Shown: positions 1,657 to 50,457 of the stretch, piece by piece
How positions within the stretch are numbered: the stretch's first letter is position 1
Layout: each line of letters begins with the position of its first letter
Source of the DNA: a virus
Lineage: Duplodnaviria; Heunggongvirae; Uroviricota; Caudoviricetes
Length of the DNA stretch: 64,000 bases
IMG/VR virus record: IMGVR_UViG_3300031088_000793
Reading direction: 5' to 3' (one strand)
The notes under the pieces: model-generated
The model's input: the letters and a program-made list of their open reading frames with translations, nothing else
Databases searched by the model: none
Told to the model about the DNA's origin: nothing
Translations under genes and position numbers: made by a program

Positions 1657-2889
1657 TCAGCTCAGATCGATGAGCTTCGAGATCCTGGCAGGCTCTCGGC
1701 GCTCGATGGCCGCCTCGATGAGCAGAGGCTTCCTGAGCGTTGTGGAGGGGAGGCTATTAGCAATCCGACTCAGCGCGATCTTCGGGGTGGCTGCGTGGAC
1801 TACGATGAGCCTACTCGGTGCGAGCTCTAGGAGCATTTCGATCTCTCGGGATCCAGCGCGGAGCTCGTCCAGGGCTATGAGATCTGAACCGATTCGAAGG
1901 AGCTCAGTGGAGCCATTCGCTGCTGCTACCTCCGCGTCGAGCACAACAGCATTGGAGGCCCTGCGAGCATAGCGCTGCACGCCCTCGACGAGAAGAAGTG
2001 AGCGTAGCTTCGAGAGCTCGATGATGGAGTCGGCCAGGGTGCTCTTTCCGGTACCCGTCACGCCGAAGACTACGATGTCTCGACCCTGCTGAAGTCCCTC
2101 GGCAGCTGCGAGCACATTGTCGATGCTCCCCGATGACTCTGATGCCGTTTCGAAGACGGTCTGCGTCACACCCATGTTCTCGACCGTCAAAGCCGTGGGC
2201 CGGCTGTTCATCTCAGCACTGATCCGGCTGAGAACATTGGGGTCAAGGAGCCTAAGCCCAACGACTCCGTAGCTGCTCCGAGTTCCCTCGAGGTAGAGCG
2301 GATTACGGAGCTCGACATCCGGGTAGATCCGCTGGATTTGCTCGCTCACTCCATGCTCAGAGTTAGCGTGGACGACGATGATCCGGCGCTTCTCGGTCTG
2401 GAGCTGAGCCGCGATGGAGCCAGCTGCAGATCCATTGAGCCGCTGAACCTCATCGATGACGAGGATCTCAGCTTCCCCACTCTCCGCCTTCGGACCCTTG
2501 AGGAGCTCTCCGTAGTGCTGGTAGTGGCTCTGCAGGATCTTAGCAGTAAGCCCCGTAGCTGCGAGCACAGCATCGACCGCTACGCTCTTGCCCGTCATCG
2601 ACTTGCCGAAGATCACGAGGTCGCGCTCGGGAGAGAGTGTTGCTGCCGCGATGGAAGCAAGCTTGAGGTCAGCATCTGTCATCAGCTCAGAGAATCGATC
2701 CGTCAGGTGCTCCCAGTTGAGCCCCAGCGCAGTTGCTTCCTTCACAGTGTAGCAGGAGTCAATGGAGCCCAGATTGAGCCGAACCTGGAGATTGGCTGCA
2801 AGCGCGAGGGCCTGTGTATAGCTGAGCTTGCCGTTGCTCAGAGCCATGAGCTCTCGAGCCTTGAGCTTGTGCGAGTGATTGGCGACCAT
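1657..2889 (-). CDS. basic N-terminal module fused to two tandem VirB11/TadA/PilT-like P-loop domains
   Basis: start MVANHSHKLKARELM...SYTQAL; Walker A GKSMTGKS and GVTGTGKS; Walker B VIDEVQ and ALDELR; VVHA His-box-like motif twice. Confidence 0.75.
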   Translation of the reverse strand: MVANHSHKLKARELMALSNGKLSYTQALALAANLQVRLNLGSIDSCYTVKEATALGLNWEHLTDRFSELMTDADLKLASIAAATLSPERDLVIFGKSMTGKSVAVDAVLAATGLTAKILQSHYQHYGELLKGPKAESGEAEILVIDEVQRLNGSAAGSIAAQLQTEKRRIIVVHANSEHGVSEQIQRIYPDVELRNPLYLEGTRSSYGVVGLRLLDPNVLSRISAEMNSRPTALTVENMGVTQTVFETASESSGSIDNVLAAAEGLQQGRDIVVFGVTGTGKSTLADSIIELSKLRSLLLVEGVQRYARRASNAVVLDAEVAAANGSTELLRIGSDLIALDELRAGSREIEMLLELAPSRLIVVHAATPKIALSRIANSLPSTTLRKPLLIEAAIERREPARISKLIDLS

Positions 2890-3042
2890 GAGGTCTGTCC
2901 CTTCGGAGTCTCCCACACAGGCTCAACAAAGAGGAAAGAGGTTTGAAGTCCTGAGATGCTAAGCACCTTCCCCCTCGTGTGCTGTCCCGTGTGGGTGGAT
3001 AGCCAGAGGCCGCCTTCAGATCGGCGTAGGGCTACACTATCA
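2890..3042 (-). ncRNA. structured leader RNA class A, copy 1 (with TGATAGTGT promoter)
   Basis: 34 nt identical to 9052-9085; long-range helix CCCACAC/GTGTGGG. Confidence 0.7.
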
Positions 3043-3562
3043 CATCCGGACTCGAAGGAGTGCCACGGCGAGCTCTCAGAGAGCCCAGGACCATGAGCAC
3101 ACCGGCTCCAAGGATAGCCAGGGAGCCACCGAGGAAGACCTCTCGCCAGGGTGTCTCCTCGAGCTTAAGCGCAGGATCCACCAGGCTGGAATCAGCGGGA
3201 TTCCCGGGAGCGTAATAGACAGTGCGCTCAGCACCTTCCTTCTGAGCCTCGCCGCAGTCCCTCTGCTCCACGGCCTCTGCCTGGATGGACTCACCGGAAT
3301 CGGCGAGGAAGCTGTAGCTCACCGTGCAGACGGCCTGATCTCCGTAGCTCACTGACTCAGCGCCCGGGAGCACAGTGCCGACGGAGGTTGCTGTCAGCCT
3401 GGAGGCATCCTGTCCAGCGTCGATCCGAAGCCAGAGGGAGCCAGCCATGAGTAGAAGTCCGAGGAGCGCCAGGGCCGTTGCGGCGAGGTAGAAGCGCCTC
3501 GGAGTGAGGGCGCCGCGCTCCAGGGAACTGCGGCTGCCTAGGTAGGGGTTTCCATCGCTCAT
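3032..3562 (-). CDS. DUF3592-like membrane protein
   Basis: two TM segments flanking a beta-rich domain, V.Y.P.NP motif; start MSDGNP at 3562. Confidence 0.65.
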   Translation of the reverse strand: MSDGNPYLGSRSSLERGALTPRRFYLAATALALLGLLLMAGSLWLRIDAGQDASRLTATSVGTVLPGAESVSYGDQAVCTVSYSFLADSGESIQAEAVEQRDCGEAQKEGAERTVYYAPGNPADSSLVDPALKLEETPWREVFLGGSLAILGAGVLMVLGSLRARRGTPSSPDVIV

Positions 3563-3644
3563 GGATCGACTATCGACCGGTAGCGATGCGGGGCGCTCGG
3601 GGGCAGGGGCCGAAGCACTCGCAGCCCCCGAGCAGAGCGGGCCC

Positions 3645-3794
3645 TTAGGCCAGCTCGTAGATGTGCGCCTGCCTCTTGGACAGGACCCAGACCTCCTGGC
3701 CCCGGGCCATGAGCTCGGCGGCCAGGGCCCAGGCTGCGCCCGAGTCCTTGCCGAACTCGCGGATGGTCCGGTTCTTCCCGTAGATAACAACCAT
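3645..3794 (-). CDS. small hypothetical protein (49 aa)
   Basis: AAGGAG SD before MVVIYGK. Confidence 0.55.
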   Translation of the reverse strand: MVVIYGKNRTIREFGKDSGAAWALAAELMARGQEVWVLSKRQAHIYELA

Positions 3795-3967
3795 GATGCT
3801 CTCCTTTTTCATACAGCACTGCCTTAGAAGCACGCAGAAGCGGAATGCCTAAGCGCGGGCAGTGAACTGTCAAAGGAGTTGAGATCAAATCATGGCGGAG
3901 GAGTATCCTTAGGGGTTAGGTGTCAATCGGGGGTGTTGCGAGGCTACCATATCGAAGTGCTTCGACC

Positions 3968-4010
3968 CTGTGCGGGGCTCGGAGGAAATTTCTCTCTGAG
4001 CCCCGCACAG
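3968..4010 (-). terminator. hairpin terminator after the VWA gene
   Basis: CTGTGCGGGGCTC...GAGCCCCGCACAG inverted repeat. Confidence 0.65.
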
Positions 4011-4015
4011 ATGGT

Positions 4016-5863
4016 CTAGCTGTCGATGAGCGCCTCGATGTTGCTCCGGATCTTGTCGAAGAGCTCACTGTCGGCAGATCTGTGGAGAGACCAGTCATCC
4101 TCCTCGATGGAAGAGGTGTCGTAGAAGCCCGCCTCCTCGGTGTCGATGACGCTGATGTGGTTCCTGACCTCGACGCCGTTGCGCTCAGCTGTACAGGAGT
4201 CGGAGAGCTTGAAGCCGATGTTGTCTCCACAGTCGGTGACCAGGATGATCTCATTCTTCTGCAGGATGGGAAGCTTCTGCATCACTTCCTGGTAGACGAA
4301 GCCGAAGGCGTTGCCGCCCGAAGCCTTGAGCGTGAGCTCGCCGATGTCCGTGGACTGCTCCACCAGCTTGTGGTTGTAGGTGAAATAGACGATGTTCTCG
4401 ATGTCCAGCTTCTCCTGGAGCTCCTCGACCATGCCCGAGAGCTCAGCGAACTTGGTGGTCCACTCAGTGTTCATGGAGCCGGAGATATCGAGGCCCACGA
4501 GCACATTGATTCCAGATGCCCTCAGCCGCTTCTTGCCCTTGAGCATGTCCGTCTGGTCGAGCTCCTTCTTGTTGGACTTGAAGTAGCTCAGCTCACTCTC
4601 GGGGAGCTTGACCCGGTTGCTCAGGATGTTGTTGAGCTCGTTCTCCTGGAGCTTGAGCCGCTTAGTCCTGAGCCCCGAGCTGATCCTCTTCAGCGCCGAG
4701 CTGTCTGCCTGACGCTTCAGGCTCTCTGAGCGGTCGATGGTGACTGGATGGGGAAGTCCACAGTCGAAGGAGTGGCCGCCATCTGAAACATCGGCATCGG
4801 GATCGTCCGGCAGGAGGTGGTCCGTCCGGTTCGAGCTCAGCCTTCCATCGGATTCCGCATCGGCATCCTCATCCCCCTCGGGGACGAAGGAGAGCTCAGC
4901 GAGGAGGAGCTCAAGGAGCTCAGCTGAGAGGTTGCGCTTCTTCTGGAGCCGGGTGAGCGCTCTGCCGCGCTCCTCCTCTGCCTCCCGCTGGTCGAGTCGC
5001 TCCCGATCCTTGGACTGGAAGACTCGAACCTTGGCCTCGAGCCTGTTCTTCAGGATCAGGGTCTTCGGCGAGGGGTTCCTCTTGAGCTTGCCCTCGAGCT
5101 TCGAGATCTGAGCGTTGGCCTTCGAGATCTCGCTGACCCTGCGCCAGATCCGCTTGTTGAGGTAGTTAGCGTCCCGGTGGACATCGAGGAGCTTCTGATC
5201 GATCTCCTCGATGTCCGAGCGGAGCTCCTGGATCATGGAGCGCAGGTGGCCTCCCAGACCCATGTAGCTTGCGGCCTTCTCGTCATCGGTGAGGGGCTCC
5301 TTGAGGAGCTTGCCACAGACCTCCTTGGCGATGTGGGAAGCGCTCTCCAGCCTGTCGAGGTGCTTCACTCCAGCCCGGATGCCGCTGAACTCTAGCGTGC
5401 TGTGGCAGACGCACTTGCCCTCGACCACAGTCTCGATGATGATGTCCTCCACGATGTTCTCAGCGTAGAGCAGCCTGCGGATCCCGTAGGCTCGGATGTT
5501 GTCCGGAGTGTAGAGGATCTTGGCGATGGAGGACCGGAGAGTCTGATCGTGGACTGAGACGAACTGGCTCGCATCGAAGAGCATGAGGTGGCCCAGCTCG
5601 TGCTGGATCAGGGTGCTGAGCATCGAGTCCGGGTAGTTCGCATTGACCACGATCTCCCGGGTGGAGGGAGTGGTGTAGGCGATCTTCGGAGTGTCGTAGT
5701 CGAGGTAGAGCTTGAAGCCGTTCTCTGCGATGTAGCGAAGGAAGGCCTTGTTAGTGAGGAAGCGCGCTGGATCGTGCTCAGTGCGCCCCGACTCATCTCG
5801 CTGGGGCTTGGGAGCCTGGCCAGGCCAGAGCTCTCCATAGTGGAAGTTCTTCTGTTCAGCCAT
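4016..5863 (-). CDS. HExxH metallopeptidase-like + coiled coil + VWA domain protein (DUF2201-like, MoxR partner)
   Basis: HELGH, long coiled coil, C-terminal DISGS MIDAS motif and LVTD. Confidence 0.8.
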   Translation of the reverse strand: MAEQKNFHYGELWPGQAPKPQRDESGRTEHDPARFLTNKAFLRYIAENGFKLYLDYDTPKIAYTTPSTREIVVNANYPDSMLSTLIQHELGHLMLFDASQFVSVHDQTLRSSIAKILYTPDNIRAYGIRRLLYAENIVEDIIIETVVEGKCVCHSTLEFSGIRAGVKHLDRLESASHIAKEVCGKLLKEPLTDDEKAASYMGLGGHLRSMIQELRSDIEEIDQKLLDVHRDANYLNKRIWRRVSEISKANAQISKLEGKLKRNPSPKTLILKNRLEAKVRVFQSKDRERLDQREAEEERGRALTRLQKKRNLSAELLELLLAELSFVPEGDEDADAESDGRLSSNRTDHLLPDDPDADVSDGGHSFDCGLPHPVTIDRSESLKRQADSSALKRISSGLRTKRLKLQENELNNILSNRVKLPESELSYFKSNKKELDQTDMLKGKKRLRASGINVLVGLDISGSMNTEWTTKFAELSGMVEELQEKLDIENIVYFTYNHKLVEQSTDIGELTLKASGGNAFGFVYQEVMQKLPILQKNEIILVTDCGDNIGFKLSDSCTAERNGVEVRNHISVIDTEEAGFYDTSSIEEDDWSLHRSADSELFDKIRSNIEALIDS

Positions 5864-5878
5864 GGTAGCCTCCTAGGA

Positions 5879-6934
5879 TCAGGCCAGCACGCGGGAGCTC
5901 GGCAGGGGAGCGTCGTCGGTCTCCACCTCAGCCTCGAACTTGTCCCGGAGGATCTCGACGATGGCCGCGTAGACCTTGGGGTTCTTGATCCGGGAGACGA
6001 ACTTCTTCGAGCGCGTGTAGGAGTAGGAGTTGGCGATGGAGTCCTGACCCCAGAGGATCTGCTGGAACTCCGAGATGTAGTCGCCCGGATCCTTCTTCCA
6101 CTGGCCGTAGGTCAGCGCGAGGTCATCCTCCTCGCCGAGGATGCTTCCGGAGGTCAGGATGTCCTCGGAGAAGAGTCCCATCTCCCGGGCGAAGTCGAAG
6201 GCCTTCTGGCCGAAGCCAGCGATGAGCGTGAGCTTCTCGACCTCGCTGAGCTCGCCGTAGCGGACGATGTTGAAGATGTTGTCCACGACTGCCGAGGAGA
6301 TCTCGTCGTAGTCGCAGTAGTTCACGATGTCATCGTAGTCCACATTGAGGAAGCCTCGAGGCATGGCGAACTTGTGCTTGGCCATCACATACTCGAAGTC
6401 GTCCACGATGGGAAGCATGCAGAGCCGCCGGCGGAAGGCTCCGGAGAGCCGCTTCGCAGCGTAGATAGCGTCCCGGCCGGGAGGGTTACAGGCACCGATG
6501 ATGTGGGTGGTCTTGGGAAGCTTCTGGCCATCGATGACGAAGTCAGAGAACATCTTCTGGAAACCTGAGAGCACATCCTGAGTGGTGTTGTTGAACTCGT
6601 CCACGAAGATGATGCACTTACCAGCTAGTGCCTTCTCAGCCCACTGGGGAAGAGCGGGCATGGTCTGCCAGACACCGTTGACCTTCTCGCGAGCTCCCAG
6701 GCCGATGATGTCGGTGGGCTCGATGCAGGCGAGGTTGAGGTCGATGAGAGTGTAGCCCATGCGCTTGGCCATCTTGGCGATGGTGGCGGACTTGCCGAGG
6801 CCGGGCTTGGAGATCAGGATGGAGACGAAGCGGTCCTCGTCGTTGGACTCCGCGTTCTCGAAGTTGCGGAAGAGCCTCTCGGTGAGCGAAATCGCTCCAT
6901 CGATGCTCTGGGAGAACATTTGCTTCTGGGCCAT
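5879..6934 (-). CDS. MoxR-like AAA+ ATPase
   Basis: SKPGLGKS Walker A, IIFVDEFN Walker B, GACNP, AFRRR arginine finger; adjacent VWA gene. Confidence 0.85.
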   Translation of the reverse strand: MAQKQMFSQSIDGAISLTERLFRNFENAESNDEDRFVSILISKPGLGKSATIAKMAKRMGYTLIDLNLACIEPTDIIGLGAREKVNGVWQTMPALPQWAEKALAGKCIIFVDEFNNTTQDVLSGFQKMFSDFVIDGQKLPKTTHIIGACNPPGRDAIYAAKRLSGAFRRRLCMLPIVDDFEYVMAKHKFAMPRGFLNVDYDDIVNYCDYDEISSAVVDNIFNIVRYGELSEVEKLTLIAGFGQKAFDFAREMGLFSEDILTSGSILGEEDDLALTYGQWKKDPGDYISEFQQILWGQDSIANSYSYTRSKKFVSRIKNPKVYAAIVEILRDKFEAEVETDDAPLPSSRVLA

Positions 6935-7126
6935 GGTGTCTATCTACCTCTGCTGAGTATCGGCTCGTGGGGGTGGTGCTCTTGGTACGAAGCTATGGTA
7001 CCAAGACGCGGCCTAAATCATCGGTGCGAGCGTCGATGCGGTCTGGAGGCTCGAGGGCTTAGACAGGCGCTCAGGGCCTCGATCCACGGCCTGATTGGGC
7101 TGTGAGCCGAGGCCCTGAGCGTAGCC

Positions 7127-8104
7127 TTAGTCTACGACTGACTCGATCACCGGCGGCCTGTCGAGGGGGTAGCGCCTGCCCACGATGGATTCAGCGATCT
7201 TGCCGAAGGTTTTCCCGATCTCGTAGTCGGAGATGATCCGCTCCAGAGCGACCTCGTTCAGAGCGGTCCCTACGATCTTCGGAGCATCTGGGATCACACT
7301 GATGATCGGCAGCTCCTGAGCGTTGGCTACTATGTCCTTGCCGAGCAGAGCGCGCTCGGCTGTGGCTCGATTGACCACGATGCCGATCTTGTCCTTCGGA
7401 ACAGCCATGCCATGCTGGTCGAGGGGGCTCGTCACCTCCCGAATCCAGCGAGCCATCGAGAAGAGCGATGGCTTTGAGGCTTCGGTGACCATGAGGATGA
7501 AATCAGCTAGCGGATAGGCTACCCTCTCGACGGTGGGATCAAGGTAGTTCGATGCCGTGTCGATGATGATGTAGTCGTAGCTGGACTTCAGCTCCTCGAT
7601 GAGCTCCCTGTAGAACTCGGGAGGGAGCTCATCGGCTGATCGGGGCCTGCGGGGAGCCAGCATGAGATCGACCTCAAGTCCCTCGTCGTGGACCTTGGTG
7701 CCTTCGATCTCGCTCTTGCTGATGCCGTAGCGCTTGAGCCTCATCACGGTGGGCTTCCAGAATCCAGTGAAGACTCCGATCTGACCGTCCCGGACATCGA
7801 GATCCAGGACGATGACCTTCAGGGGGTCCTTTGCTGCGCCTCGGGCTACCGACACCTTCGAGGCCTTGGAGATGTAGCTCGCCAGGCTCAGAGCGACGGT
7901 GGTCTTGCCAGTGCCTCCCCGGGAAGAGGTCACGGTGACGACCTGCCCCAGTGGGTGGCGATGTTCGAAGACTGTGGGCTCTGCCCCGTCCTGTCTAGGG
8001 AGCTCCCCGGAGATCTCCAGGGTGAGCCTTGCTTCGAGATAGTTGAGTCCCGTTTCAGCCATGTAGCTGCGGATGACTCGCTTGATCTTGCGGTTGCTGG
8101 TCAT
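7127..8104 (-). CDS. basic N-terminal module fused to MinD/ParA/CpaE-like ATPase
   Basis: MTSNRKIKRVIRSYMAETGLNYLEARL; deviant Walker A SRGGTGKTT, LDLD, YDYIIIDT. Confidence 0.85.
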   Translation of the reverse strand: MTSNRKIKRVIRSYMAETGLNYLEARLTLEISGELPRQDGAEPTVFEHRHPLGQVVTVTSSRGGTGKTTVALSLASYISKASKVSVARGAAKDPLKVIVLDLDVRDGQIGVFTGFWKPTVMRLKRYGISKSEIEGTKVHDEGLEVDLMLAPRRPRSADELPPEFYRELIEELKSSYDYIIIDTASNYLDPTVERVAYPLADFILMVTEASKPSLFSMARWIREVTSPLDQHGMAVPKDKIGIVVNRATAERALLGKDIVANAQELPIISVIPDAPKIVGTALNEVALERIISDYEIGKTFGKIAESIVGRRYPLDRPPVIESVVD

Positions 8105-8263
8105 GAGTATCTACCTTCTGCGGTCAGCCCACGCTTTGACTGCACAGTAAGAGATCCATGGCAATCAGTAACCTACAGGATTCGGAAACCTTGCTCTAGA
8201 GGCGGTCGCGTGGGGACACTACCCAAAGACGGGCCGCTGTAGCCGGCCAGAGCTACACTATCA
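8105..8263 (-). ncRNA. structured leader RNA class B, copy 1 (with TGATAGTGT promoter)
   Basis: shares TGGCCG..ACAGC.GCCCGTCTT, CCCACGC/GCGTGGG helix and AGAGCAAGGTT(C)TCCGAATCCTGT with 13531-13688. Confidence 0.7.
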
Positions 8264-8337
8264 AAGCCCCGTAGGAAAATCTCACAGTTGCTGGAAGTGG
8301 CCACCCAGATCCCGCACCGCGGCTCCCCGCTCAGCAA

Positions 8338-8958
8338 TCAGGCTGCGCGGTGGATGCGCAGCCCTCGGGCTCTCAGCTCCCGGTCATAGACGGACTCAAG
8401 GAAGACAGGTGATCTGAGCTCTAGCTCTGGCATCATGCGCTCGAGCCTCCAGCGAGCACTGTCTAGATCCTCCCCATGGATCACGAGAATCCTAGGTAGC
8501 GCTGTCGAGAGCTGAGCTCCCTGATCTGCGAAGGAGCTGCGAAGCTCATCTACCATCAGTACCTCACTTCTGGCGGCTATAGATCCGGCAAAGTAATGCT
8601 GGGACTGGACAAAGGAGTAGACACCGGCTATGTCCAAAAAGCTCCTGAGCCAGGCTGCTTCGAGATAGTGGCTCGCGAGGATAAAAGCGCGGAGCTGCAC
8701 CGCTTGGAGCACACTGTAGGCAGCTGTGCTCTTGCCCGATCCGGCTAGACCGAAGATCACGAGATCGCTGCCGGCTACCAATGCCCTGGAGGCTTCAGCT
8801 ACGATGGCTTTGCTCTCAGCCGGGAGCTCCCGGGATCGAATCCTTCTAAGGCTGTCGATCTTCGTGACATGGGCCATGGCATCGGTGAAGCCTATGGGCT
8901 TTTCGCTATCGGCCATGATCCGTCGAGCGATTTTCTTCTGAGCGTGATTGGCGACCAT
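8338..8958 (-). CDS. basic N-terminal module fused to single VirB11/TadA-like P-loop domain
   Basis: MVANHAQKKIARRIM; GLAGSGKS, MVDELR, VIHG; paralog of 1657-2889. Confidence 0.75.
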   Translation of the reverse strand: MVANHAQKKIARRIMADSEKPIGFTDAMAHVTKIDSLRRIRSRELPAESKAIVAEASRALVAGSDLVIFGLAGSGKSTAAYSVLQAVQLRAFILASHYLEAAWLRSFLDIAGVYSFVQSQHYFAGSIAARSEVLMVDELRSSFADQGAQLSTALPRILVIHGEDLDSARWRLERMMPELELRSPVFLESVYDRELRARGLRIHRAA

Positions 8959-9102
8959 AGTGGATCCCTTCGGAGCTCCCGCACAGTTCAAAGAGATGGA
9001 AGAAGATGATCTGCGATGCTGAACACCTTCCCTCTCTGAGGCTTCCAGTGCGGGTGGATAGCCAGAGGCCGCCTTCAGATCGGCGGTATGCTCATACTAT
9101 CA
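8959..9102 (-). ncRNA. structured leader RNA class A, copy 2 (with TGATAGTAT promoter)
   Basis: helix CCCGCAC/GTGCGGG covaries with copy 1. Confidence 0.7.
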
Positions 9103-9103
9103 A

Positions 9104-9143
9104 AGAGGCGGAGCGAACGACCTAAGCCCTTCGCTCCGCCTCT
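9104..9143 (-). terminator. hairpin terminator after the ParM gene
   Basis: AGAGGCGGAGCGAA...TTCGCTCCGCCTCT. Confidence 0.65.
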
Positions 9144-9170
9144 AGATCCCGCCAGATGGCGAAGTTACTC

Positions 9171-10460
9171 TCAGTCCTTCTTCTTGGCTGCCTTCTTAGC
9201 CTCAGCCTTGTCCTGGGAGGCGAGGAAGAGCCCGGCCCTGTTGAGGTGGCGAGAGTAGGAGCCATCGAGGTAGAGGAGGGGGAAGGCGCTCACCGAGTTC
9301 ATCTCACTGATCTTGTCCTGGAGCCGGGAGTAGAGCACTTCCTTCATGGCTCCAGCGCCGCCTCCGTAGACGAAGCCGACCTCGGTCATGGCGCCCACAT
9401 TGCGGAGGATAGAGCCGAGCTTCTCAGCAACCTCATCCGCGAAGAACACTGACTCCTGATCCACGAACTGCTGAACCCGGCTGTGGAAGGCGCGCTTCAG
9501 TGCCGAGGGCTTCCTCTGCAGGAATTCAGCGAGCTCCTTCCGGGAGCTGAAGCCAGCCTCGATGCCCTGGTCCTCCATGGCCGTGATGGCAGAGATGAGC
9601 ACTGAGCCCCAGCCCTTGTCCAGAGTCCGGGAAGCGTCAGCGTTGAACTTTCCGTTGGTGAAGACGGGGAAGTTCACGGTGCCCTCTCCCACATCGATGC
9701 CGATGGTGTTGGTGGCAGCGAGCACATCCTTGGGAGTGATCTCAGCGAGCTCTTCCCGGCGCTCGGGAGTGGGAGCGTTCTCCAGCAGATCTGAGAGCAC
9801 CTTGTCCATGATGGAGGCGCCTCGCTCAGCGATGGCGTAGTGGGCCGAAGCGCCCTCGGCGAGGACCTCGACCTTCGAGAAGGTGATCCTCACCACCACG
9901 CTGGTCTCGAAGTTCTTCACCATGGCGATGTGGGCCTTGCCTCCGTTGATGAACTCAGCAGCGTAGCTCTCCCGGTGGCGCATGAACTCGGAGATGGGGA
10001 GAGCGAGCGCAGCGCTGGCGTCCACGAGGATCTCCTCGGTGGGGAGGCTTCCCTCCCGGGTCACATAGTCCTTCAGCGCCTTGGCGGCGAAGATGCCGAG
10101 CACCAGAGCCTTCGAGAGGGGCTGCTTAGCCTTGGAGGCCCTGCCCACAGTGTCGAACTCCTCGAAGGCGCCGTCGGCCGAGAGGGAGCGCATGCCGAAG
10201 ACCCGGCGGTAGCTGTCGGGGATCAGGGGACTGTCGAAGGACACATCGAGCTGATTGAAGAAGTCGGGATCGCTCTCAGCGAGGACCTCGGGAGCGTCCT
10301 CGTCAGCGATGGGGATCTGGTTGGGCCGGGTGAGGATAGCCACGGAGGAGGGCATGTCCACCGAATCCCGGGGCTTGCCGTCACCCCTGCTTTCGATGAG
10401 TGCCTTGACATAGCCGTTGCCGATGTCTAGCCCGCCGTTGAGCTCTACCTTGATCGCCAT
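9171..10460 (-). CDS. ParM/StbA family actin-like ATPase
   Basis: phosphate-1 GLDIGNGYVK, connect AEG, phosphate-2 GIDVGEGTVN, adenosine YGGGA. Confidence 0.85.
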   Translation of the reverse strand: MAIKVELNGGLDIGNGYVKALIESRGDGKPRDSVDMPSSVAILTRPNQIPIADEDAPEVLAESDPDFFNQLDVSFDSPLIPDSYRRVFGMRSLSADGAFEEFDTVGRASKAKQPLSKALVLGIFAAKALKDYVTREGSLPTEEILVDASAALALPISEFMRHRESYAAEFINGGKAHIAMVKNFETSVVVRITFSKVEVLAEGASAHYAIAERGASIMDKVLSDLLENAPTPERREELAEITPKDVLAATNTIGIDVGEGTVNFPVFTNGKFNADASRTLDKGWGSVLISAITAMEDQGIEAGFSSRKELAEFLQRKPSALKRAFHSRVQQFVDQESVFFADEVAEKLGSILRNVGAMTEVGFVYGGGAGAMKEVLYSRLQDKISEMNSVSAFPLLYLDGSYSRHLNRAGLFLASQDKAEAKKAAKKKD

Positions 10461-10567
10461 GAGATTTCCCTAGTTCAGTGTGCTGTTCATTGGAGCTATC
10501 CTATCGAAAGCTGCACAAAAGACGCGGATCTACACGGATTCGCTGAGAGGGTAGCGGGTGGATGAAC

Positions 10568-11065
10568 TCAGTACTTGAGCTCCAGGGCTCGCACGGCCTT
10601 CGTGGGCCTTGCCTTGCCCGTGAAGTAGCCCCGGACGATGATGGAGCCGTGCTGATTGAGGTAGAAGGTGTTGAACTCGAAGTTCGGATCGAACATCGGA
10701 CGGGGATAGTCATCCGAAGGGTCGGAGATCTCTTTGAATCCTCCAGCGATGAGCTCGTCAGCAATGAGCCGGTTGATCCGAGCCTCATCCTCCTTCGAGA
10801 ACTTGAGGTCGAATCCCCAGGCCGTGAGCGAGAGCTCCCCCTGATCCTTAGCTCGTTCCTTAGTCTGCTCGTTGAAGGTCACATAGAGCTCGTAGTCTCC
10901 CCAGTCTTCGGAGGAGATCTCCATGAAGCCATTGAGTCGGGCTCCAGCACAGCTGCTGCAGCACTCGAACTTGGGAAGGTAGCGAAGCCTGCCAGCGAGC
11001 TCTAGGGGCTCCAGCGCCTTGGCTAGAGTCTTGAAGCTGCTCTCAGTGGGCATTGCGAAGCTCAT
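10568..11065 (-). CDS. hypothetical protein with FECCxxCA motif
   Basis: paralog of 16113-16673 (YLP.FECC..CA, TFN.QTK). Confidence 0.7.
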   Translation of the reverse strand: MSFAMPTESSFKTLAKALEPLELAGRLRYLPKFECCSSCAGARLNGFMEISSEDWGDYELYVTFNEQTKERAKDQGELSLTAWGFDLKFSKEDEARINRLIADELIAGGFKEISDPSDDYPRPMFDPNFEFNTFYLNQHGSIIVRGYFTGKARPTKAVRALELKY

Positions 11066-12291: not shown

Positions 12292-12376
12292 GCTGTGCTG
12301 CCCTTCCCTCTGGAGGTTGCTCCTGAGTACGGAGCTGTCATGGTGATCCTATCACGCGGGAGCCCTAGGGCCATTG

Positions 12377-13530: not shown

Positions 13531-13688
13531 TGTTAGCATGGGACTGGCCGCCCACAGCAGCCCGTCTTAGAGCAACGCTCCCACGCAGCGAGCTCGGCAA
13601 GAGCAAGGTTCTCCGAATCCTGTGGATGCATGGACTATCTCCTATCGAGTAGCCAGGCGTGGGACGGCTGCAGAACAGGAATAGCACC
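13531..13688 (+). ncRNA. structured leader RNA class B, copy 2 (with TGTTAGCAT promoter)
   Basis: CCCACGC 13580-13586 pairs with GCGTGGG 13657-13663; homologous to 8105-8263. Confidence 0.7.
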
Positions 13689-50420: not shown

Positions 50421-50457
50421 GGTTGCGCTCGCCGGGAGCGAGTGTTAGGTTGACCCC
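50421..50457 (+). promoter_or_regulatory. promoter, leaderless transcript
   Basis: TTGCGC-17-TAGGTT, ATG 7 nt later. Confidence 0.7.

Follow-up and report, generated by a model that had tools for sequence, protein, structure and literature searches.

In phage lambda, the arginine-rich N-terminal peptide of the N protein binds a small hairpin in the nut site. In phage T4, the nucleic-acid-binding proteins encoded by genes 32 and 43 repress their own translation (PMC3014915, PMC535899). Like the T4 operators, the locus described here places a folded 5' leader ahead of a replication-related gene, with its structured part toward the 5' end and the ribosome-binding site after it. We analyzed a 64,000-nucleotide (nt) stretch of IMG/VR record IMGVR_UViG_3300031088_000793 (hereafter the window; part of a 673,773-bp contig; 61% G+C), in which two related leaders on the minus strand precede ATG 2889 (P0001, 410 amino acids [aa]) and ATG 8958 (P0002, 206 aa). 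These leaders are conserved, have a fold with compensatory changes, and lie on the coding strand between a promoter-like box and the ribosome-binding site. The pair is very probably a functional, cis-acting structured 5' leader RNA of a new family.

Conservation and fold of the class A leaders

An earlier note on the window had described an identical 34-nt block in the two leaders (2993-3026 and 9052-9085). A search confirms it, with two matches in the window at up to three mismatches compared with none in 100 shuffles. As that note stated, the block contains the hairpin CGCC-GAUCUGAA-GGCG (minus strand), and both copies carry the motifs GGAAGGUG.U.AGCAUC.CAG and CUCCGAAGGGA. The proteins have indeed diverged further than the leaders, at 42% aa and 52% nucleotide identity versus 74-79% for the leaders.

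P0001 and P0002 have few homologues; a profile search of 1.84 billion representatives returned 39 proteins at E<=0.001, of which 20 reached E<=1e-10. From homologue contigs and one metagenome pattern scan we collected 15 further class A leaders, yielding 17 distinct sequences with the two window copies. One source (L013) is a second element bearing two leader copies. Blastn searches with the leader against plasmid and phage collections produced no match, and pattern and protein scans of IMG/VR and of GTDB genomes found nothing.

Single-sequence folds and RNAalifold concur on three elements. These are a hairpin (P1), a long-range 7-bp helix (P2, CCCRCAC/GUGYGGG), and an inner purine/pyrimidine helix (P3) with a cap (P4, GGUGY/GCAUC) whose loop is variable. 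Among the 13 close sequences, 93% of cells are paired, and the variation in P2 amounts to a single G-C to A-U change carried by four sequences of one lineage. This accounts for the window copies, whose arms (CCCACAC/GUGUGGG and CCCGCAC/GUGCGGG) are as the earlier note gave them, although the compensatory change that it called double is one pair, changed on both sides. The A-U pair is fixed in one paralogue lineage (leaders W1, L010/L016, L015, and L017) and is the derived state, as L011, at the copy 1 position, keeps G-C. Such a pair is weak evidence when drawn from the two window sequences alone, but the collected relatives make the case solid.

Covariation was assessed in a cmsearch alignment of the 17 distinct sequences, which is fitted to the model. 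In this alignment, a check of the kind that the earlier note proposed, P1 and P2 are 100% paired. Both sides have changed in 2/4 P1 pairs, 4/7 P2 pairs, and 6/7 P3 pairs; the total of 17 pairs changed on both sides compares with 5.2±1.5 in shuffles (0/500) and 3-9 with slid partners. The distant homologue L019 shows changes on both sides in 2/4 P1 and 3/7 P2 pairs with pairing kept (P1 becomes UGCA/UGCA and P2 GCCGCGU/ACGCGGC), while it retains the motif GAGGAAGGUGCUUCGCAUCC. Its covariance-model score is 19 bits (E ~8e-5 locally, 0.04 over 189 kb). The covariance models match class A copies only, aligning three copies from L018 and that of L019 at full length. The leaders have a conserved secondary structure backed by compensatory changes.

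Orthologous leaders are 87-99% identical, compared with 50-79% for the proteins and 36-65% at four-fold degenerate sites; for W1 versus L017, the values are 93%, 55%, and 47%. With P2 paired in 17/17 sequences, these figures support the earlier proposal of selection on RNA structure. Because P3 and P4 contain many G·U pairs, which would be C·A mismatches on the opposite strand, the fold is that of the sense RNA. In P4 the stem is 97.6% paired and the loop is variable, and its motif is also kept in L019. P4 competes with a longer stem, GGUGCUC/GAGCAUC, that is lost in W1-type and L011 leaders, and we treat the apical region as variable. A further pairing is predicted between the linker UGGCUA.CCA and the start region UGG.U(A/C)GCCA (85% of cells paired; lost in L018c and L019). 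Moreover, almost every nucleotide is conserved, including the loops and the 15-nt single-stranded linker, which argues for a sequence-specific partner beyond secondary structure alone. A partner in trans was considered and set aside, as the window contains no further copy or complement of the linker or of the Shine-Dalgarno (SD) block. The best-conserved motif of the whole family is the SD-like GAAGGUG in P4 (2955-2967 and 9015-9027, minus strand), which has no start codon behind it and could be a ribosome decoy, a standby site, or a protein site.

The SD-AUG spacing differs by 1-7 nt among relatives, and since these insertions and deletions keep no reading frame, we regard the leader as non-coding. 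A leader peptide was likewise rejected, since there is no conserved open reading frame (ORF); L001 does contain a long one (P0004), but it arises by chance of frame, as the spacing is not the same among relatives. Public gene calls run through the leader, so that the annotated proteins falsely begin 46 and 26 residues ahead of MVANH (P0004 at L001:343-1131; P0033).

Across the entire window, no Rfam 15 family reached its gathering threshold. At E<=10, the best sub-threshold hits on 8900-9200 were unrelated families scoring below 20 bits, compared with thresholds of 40-100, and ARAGORN reported no tRNA or tmRNA.

Two relatives illustrate the range of the family. L018, a 123-kb relative, carries three tandem cassettes of class A leader and ATPase gene (8444-10627). 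Their linkers are mutually diverged, P1 and P2 are retained, and in L018a both P2 arms are one base shorter. The leader architecture is also retained in L019 (9869-10015; also L020 and L021), from contigs of up to 828 kb with 56% G+C. The neighbors there (TelA, NucS, an MFS transporter, TPM phosphatases) resemble genes of cells or plasmids more than those of phages.

Promoter, ribosome-binding site and a shared N-terminal module

A TGWTAGNNT box resembling an extended -10 element lies upstream of 8/8 leader-bearing genes in the window. The box is conserved, the next ~8 nt around the putative start site are variable, and conservation resumes at P1, 8-10 nt beyond the box. With the promoter predicted from sequence in this way, the non-coding leader appears to occupy the sense-strand interval from promoter to start codon. 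The box also occurs at 12354, 19610, and 47023 (minus strand) and at 50443 and 50717 (plus strand), in some cases 42-63 nt upstream of gene starts (12291, 19559, and 46967). The window contains 15 in all, only about double the ~7 estimated from base composition. Boxes near other gene starts suggest that long leaders may be a peculiarity of the eight genes with the module.

Both leaders place the SD block GAAGGGA 7-9 nt before AUG; other window genes use AGGAG or GAAAGG-type SDs at similar spacing. Candidate pairings join the start codon to the linker and the SD to the pyrimidine tract. The second codon, GUA for valine in six leaders, in most of these lengthens the complementarity to the invariant linker UGGCUA. 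The N terminus that follows the leader, MV(A/T)NH(A/S)xK (2875-2889 and 8944-8958, minus strand), is retained even in members at E ~1e-9 and may resemble the ClpX-recognised N-terminal tag of lambda O.

The metatranscriptome contig X17 record 2 covers 2734-3019, from coding sequence to 7 nt inside P1, which is weak evidence of transcription. The copy 2 leader is almost uncovered in all runs, which probably reflects assembly breaking at the repeat. The 151-nt contig X20 matches leader and -10 box (2984-3047) and then continues into unrelated sequence; it probably reflects a relative with a different upstream neighbor, read-through, or DNA carry-over.

Beyond the class A pair, a profile of the basic N-terminal module, built from the same eight stretches that it recovers, has exactly eight matches in the window. 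Each of these eight genes has its own -10 box and a ~150-190-nt upstream leader, and the leaders fall into three classes (A, B, and C). All three classes begin with a 5' hairpin and contain a long-range CCC.../...GGG helix ~25-40 nt before AUG; homology across classes was rejected as an explanation, as the class A covariance models give no match to class B or C leaders. Class B leaders at 8105-8250 (minus strand) and 13544-13688 (plus strand) precede MinD/ParA-like and DnaB-like genes and share the helix CCCACGC/GCGUGGG. In a class B orthologue (L003:1722-1990), this helix is CUCACGC/GCGUGAG, an independent compensatory change from C-G to U-A. Codons of the module vary at synonymous sites, indicating that it is selected as protein, and the strict pairing of leader classes with module subclasses makes the module the best effector candidate. 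Known domains (RHH, SAP/HeH, and others) were discarded as an identity for it: no Pfam or PDB sequence matches, and an AlphaFold2 (AF2) model shows the module as helices only, without a ribbon strand.

Table 1. Leader elements, their downstream genes and an adjacent hairpin in the window
Feature	Position	Strand	Remarks
Leader copy 1	2890-3030	-	~130-140 nt
Copy 1 extended -10 promoter-like box TGTGATAGTGT	3034-3044	-	predicted from sequence
Copy 1 P1, 5'-terminal hairpin CGCC-GAUCUGAA-GGCG	3011-3026	-	8-nt loop; stem paired in 17/17 distinct sequences
Copy 1 linker GCCUCUGGCUAUCCA	2996-3010	-	15 nt, single-stranded; invariant in 13 lineages
Copy 1 P2 5' arm CCCACAC	2989-2995	-	partner 2912-2918; A-U at position 4, derived state
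Copy 1 P3 5' arm ACGAGGGGGAA	2968-2978	-	single-sequence minimum free energy (MFE) fold
Copy 1 P4 hairpin GGUGC-UUA-GCAUC	2955-2967	-	contains SD-like GAAGGUG; MFE fold
Copy 1 P3 3' arm UUCCUCUUUGU	2926-2936	-	purine/pyrimidine tracts, register ambiguous
Copy 1 P2 3' arm GUGUGGG	2912-2918	-	
Copy 1 SD block CUCCGAAGGGA	2898-2908	-	8 nt before AUG; invariant in 13 close leaders
P0001, copy 1 gene	1657-2889	-	410 aa; basic helical N-terminal module, then two tandem P-loop ATPase modules
Leader copy 2	8959-9089	-	~130-140 nt
Copy 2 extended -10 box TTTGATAGTAT	9094-9104	-	
Copy 2 P1 hairpin	9070-9085	-	
Copy 2 invariant linker	9055-9069	-	
Copy 2 P2 5' arm CCCGCAC	9048-9054	-	ancestral state
Copy 2 P3 5' arm UCAGAGAG	9032-9039	-	
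Copy 2 P4 hairpin GGUGU-UCA-GCAUC	9015-9027	-	
Copy 2 P3 3' arm CUCUUUGA	8988-8995	-	
Copy 2 P2 3' arm GUGCGGG	8978-8984	-	
Copy 2 SD block CUCCGAAGGGA	8965-8975	-	
P0002, copy 2 gene	8338-8958	-	206 aa; N-terminal three-helix module, then minimal traffic-ATPase-like core
Terminator-like hairpin	9104-9143	-	predicted from sequence to end the actin-like (ALP/ParM-like) gene upstream; immediately precedes the copy 2 promoter

A candidate translational operator and its rivals

We tentatively favor the view that the leader is a protein-bound translational operator. Under this proposal, the mRNA would start a few bases past the extended -10 box, and the leader would be its 5' untranslated part. P1 would stand at the extreme 5' end, and P2 would close the irregular P3 hairpin, whose tip, P4, would present the SD-like GGAAGGUG, with the real SD following. 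The leader would act in cis and post-transcriptionally, with mRNA stability possibly affected too. A protein would recognise the near-invariant loops and linker and set the output of the downstream traffic-ATPase-like gene. The favored effector would be the N-terminal module, basic and helical, of either the encoded protein or its paralogues; the one line of support for such an autogenous operator is the co-occurrence of leader and module in 8/8 genes. Regulation of translation by a protein effector, especially the N-terminal module, is what we infer to be most likely.

Invariant loops and linker combined with covarying stems are also aptamer-like, and the leader might instead be a riboswitch or another direct sensor (a thermosensor, or a sensor of a small ligand or ion), in which junctions and loops form a pocket and CUCUUUG switches translation by pairing alternatively with the upstream purine tract or the SD. 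Read from the sequences, AUCUCUUUG is able to pair with CAGAGAG in P3 or, alternatively, with CGAAGGGAU of the SD block, and CCUCU of the linker with AGAGG; opening the SD/AUG region costs 3.5-10 kcal/mol. However, chance pairing of purine with pyrimidine tracts occurs in many registers, and three structurally different leader classes accompanying one protein module suit protein partners better than three aptamers. The hallmarks of a riboswitch, a known ligand class and linked metabolic or transport genes, are also absent: no Rfam riboswitch family matches, and the downstream genes are traffic-ATPase-like and, more broadly, replication/segregation-type nucleoside triphosphatases (NTPases). We consider a direct sensor rather unlikely, and assign a similarly low probability to an mRNA stabiliser or processing element that lacks regulatory input, with the 5' hairpin blocking 5'-end-dependent decay and the folded body serving as an RNase site. 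Such a role would fit the position of P1 within a few nt of the predicted 5' end in class A and the hairpins that begin classes B and C. Nevertheless, a stem alone would suffice for it, and it explains neither the near-invariance of ~130 nt, loops included, at saturated synonymous divergence nor the strict association with one protein module.

The genes belong to a replication and segregation cluster (ParM-like, ParA-like, and DnaB-like), P1 forms a short palindrome immediately after the -10 box, and the N-terminal module is basic and helical, all of which would suit a DNA-level site, operator or centromere-like, bound by that module or by a partition protein. We find this very unlikely: the P2 arms compensate across ~70 nt, the many G·U pairs would be mismatched on the other strand, there are no iterated repeats, and conservation spans the whole transcribed stretch to the SD. 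Least probable, to the point that we give it little credence, is a by-product of recombination, in which promoter, leader, and N terminus would mark a module boundary subject to repeated exchange or conversion between copies and between related elements, with a fold that has no function. The identity of the 34-nt block between paralogues of one genome and the presence of one leader and N-terminal unit on unrelated cargo genes are in keeping with exchange. Yet the leader persists in at least 11 lineages whose four-fold sites are saturated, the three paralogous L018 copies have diverged from one another and still keep P1 and P2, and conversion alone is not expected to produce compensatory changes.

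Several observations weigh against the operator proposal. L019, at 19 bits, supplies most of the new covariation in an alignment that is itself fitted to the model. Folding of single sequences gives z-scores of only ~-1.7. The linker is replaced in L018c and L019. The RNA evidence consists of assembled contigs. The predicted accessibility of the SD and AUG is that of 48 control genes, and on this ground constitutive masking of these sites was dropped. Moreover, searches of Pfam and PDB sequences with the N-terminal module returned no match and no known RNA-binding family.

A bolder version of the operator proposal, which we consider doubtful, is a portable cassette of leader and N-terminal peptide. 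A basic helical module of ~30 aa would recognise and bind its own folded mRNA leader, with class-specific pairing (A, B, and C), and the cassette would have been added to replication and segregation NTPases that are unrelated to one another (traffic-ATPase-like, MinD/ParA-like, DnaB-like, and primase-like). If so, it would constitute a self-contained RNA-protein circuit balancing replisome and segrosome components of a giant element.

Genomic setting and comparison with described systems

An AF2 model of P0002 (predicted local distance difference test score 86) places three N-terminal helices ahead of a RecA-like core. In a Foldseek search of the PDB, its best matches are FlaI, GspE, VirB11, PilT, and TadA, with probability 1.00 to FlaI, GspE, HP0525, PilT, and TadA and template modelling scores of ~0.45-0.5 over the query. 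The sequence contains VIFGxxGxGKS, VDE, and VVHG/A (Walker A, Walker B, and His-box-like motifs). By motifs and modelled fold, P0002 is predicted to be a traffic ATPase of the PilT/VirB11/FlaI type; the N-terminal domain usual in these enzymes is lacking, and Pfam traffic-ATPase models gave no match to P0002 at cut-off. Members of the family (among them P0005, P0007, P0008, P0015, and P0017) have a single ATPase module (~206 aa), a module with a ~130-aa C-terminal extension, or two modules (383-501 aa). The longest two-module proteins, P0015 and P0017, carry a middle domain between the modules. P0001 is of the tandem two-module form.

The neighborhood encodes an actin-like (ALP/ParM-like) protein, a ParA/MinD-like ATPase, an AAA ATPase, and a DnaB-like helicase, and most remaining genes have no family match. 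The ORF at 9171-10460 matches Pfam ALP_N. The stretch was detected in phyllosphere, plant, and straw metagenomes. It derives from a very large uncultivated plant-surface element that may be a huge phage, a megaplasmid, or a small genome. If our reading is correct, an undescribed family of structured mRNA leaders under unusually strong sequence constraint controls replication/segregation-type ATPases in giant uncultivated plant-surface elements (contigs of 0.1-0.8 Mb). The leader is amenable to testing, being a defined ~135-nt RNA with clear helices and a candidate peptide partner.

Antisense-controlled plasmid rep leaders (CopA/CopT of R1, the repZ pseudoknot of IncI plasmids) are similar in that a replication or maintenance gene has a structured leader with a 5' stem-loop and possible pairing between a loop and a downstream site. 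In the leaders described here, UCUG of the P1 loop or linker could pair with the invariant CAGA after P4. They differ from the rep leaders in having no conserved leader peptide. In addition, a simple sigma-70 -35/-10 consensus scan of both strands detected no promoter-like site in the two leaders, and a simple terminator scan found no terminator-like site within them, its only match (plus strand, 8909-8926) lying inside coding sequence. By these simple consensus scans, the antisense promoter and terminator expected of an antisense-RNA-controlled replication leader appear to be missing.

The resemblance to lambda N and boxB, which we treat as a lead only, lies in a basic N-terminal helix and a small conserved hairpin with CUGAA near the transcript 5' end. 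Here, by contrast, the P1 loop has 8 nt and is not a GNRA-like pentaloop, and there is no boxA or antitermination context. The T4 gene 32 and 43 operators have no sequence or Rfam relationship to these leaders, and the downstream proteins here are traffic-ATPase-like rather than Ssb or polymerase. A further distinction is that our leaders come as a cassette with a shared N-terminal peptide on different cargo, and binding by the encoded protein is a proposal here. Ribosomal-protein leaders, which are autogenous cis-regulators (PMC3616713, PMC4137082), serve another gene class; our leaders show no evident mimicry of rRNA and are restricted to giant uncultivated elements of a rare clade. In common with ribosomal-protein leaders, however, the leaders described here are lineage-restricted, combine invariant recognition nucleotides with covarying stems, and would present several RNA structures for one kind of regulation.

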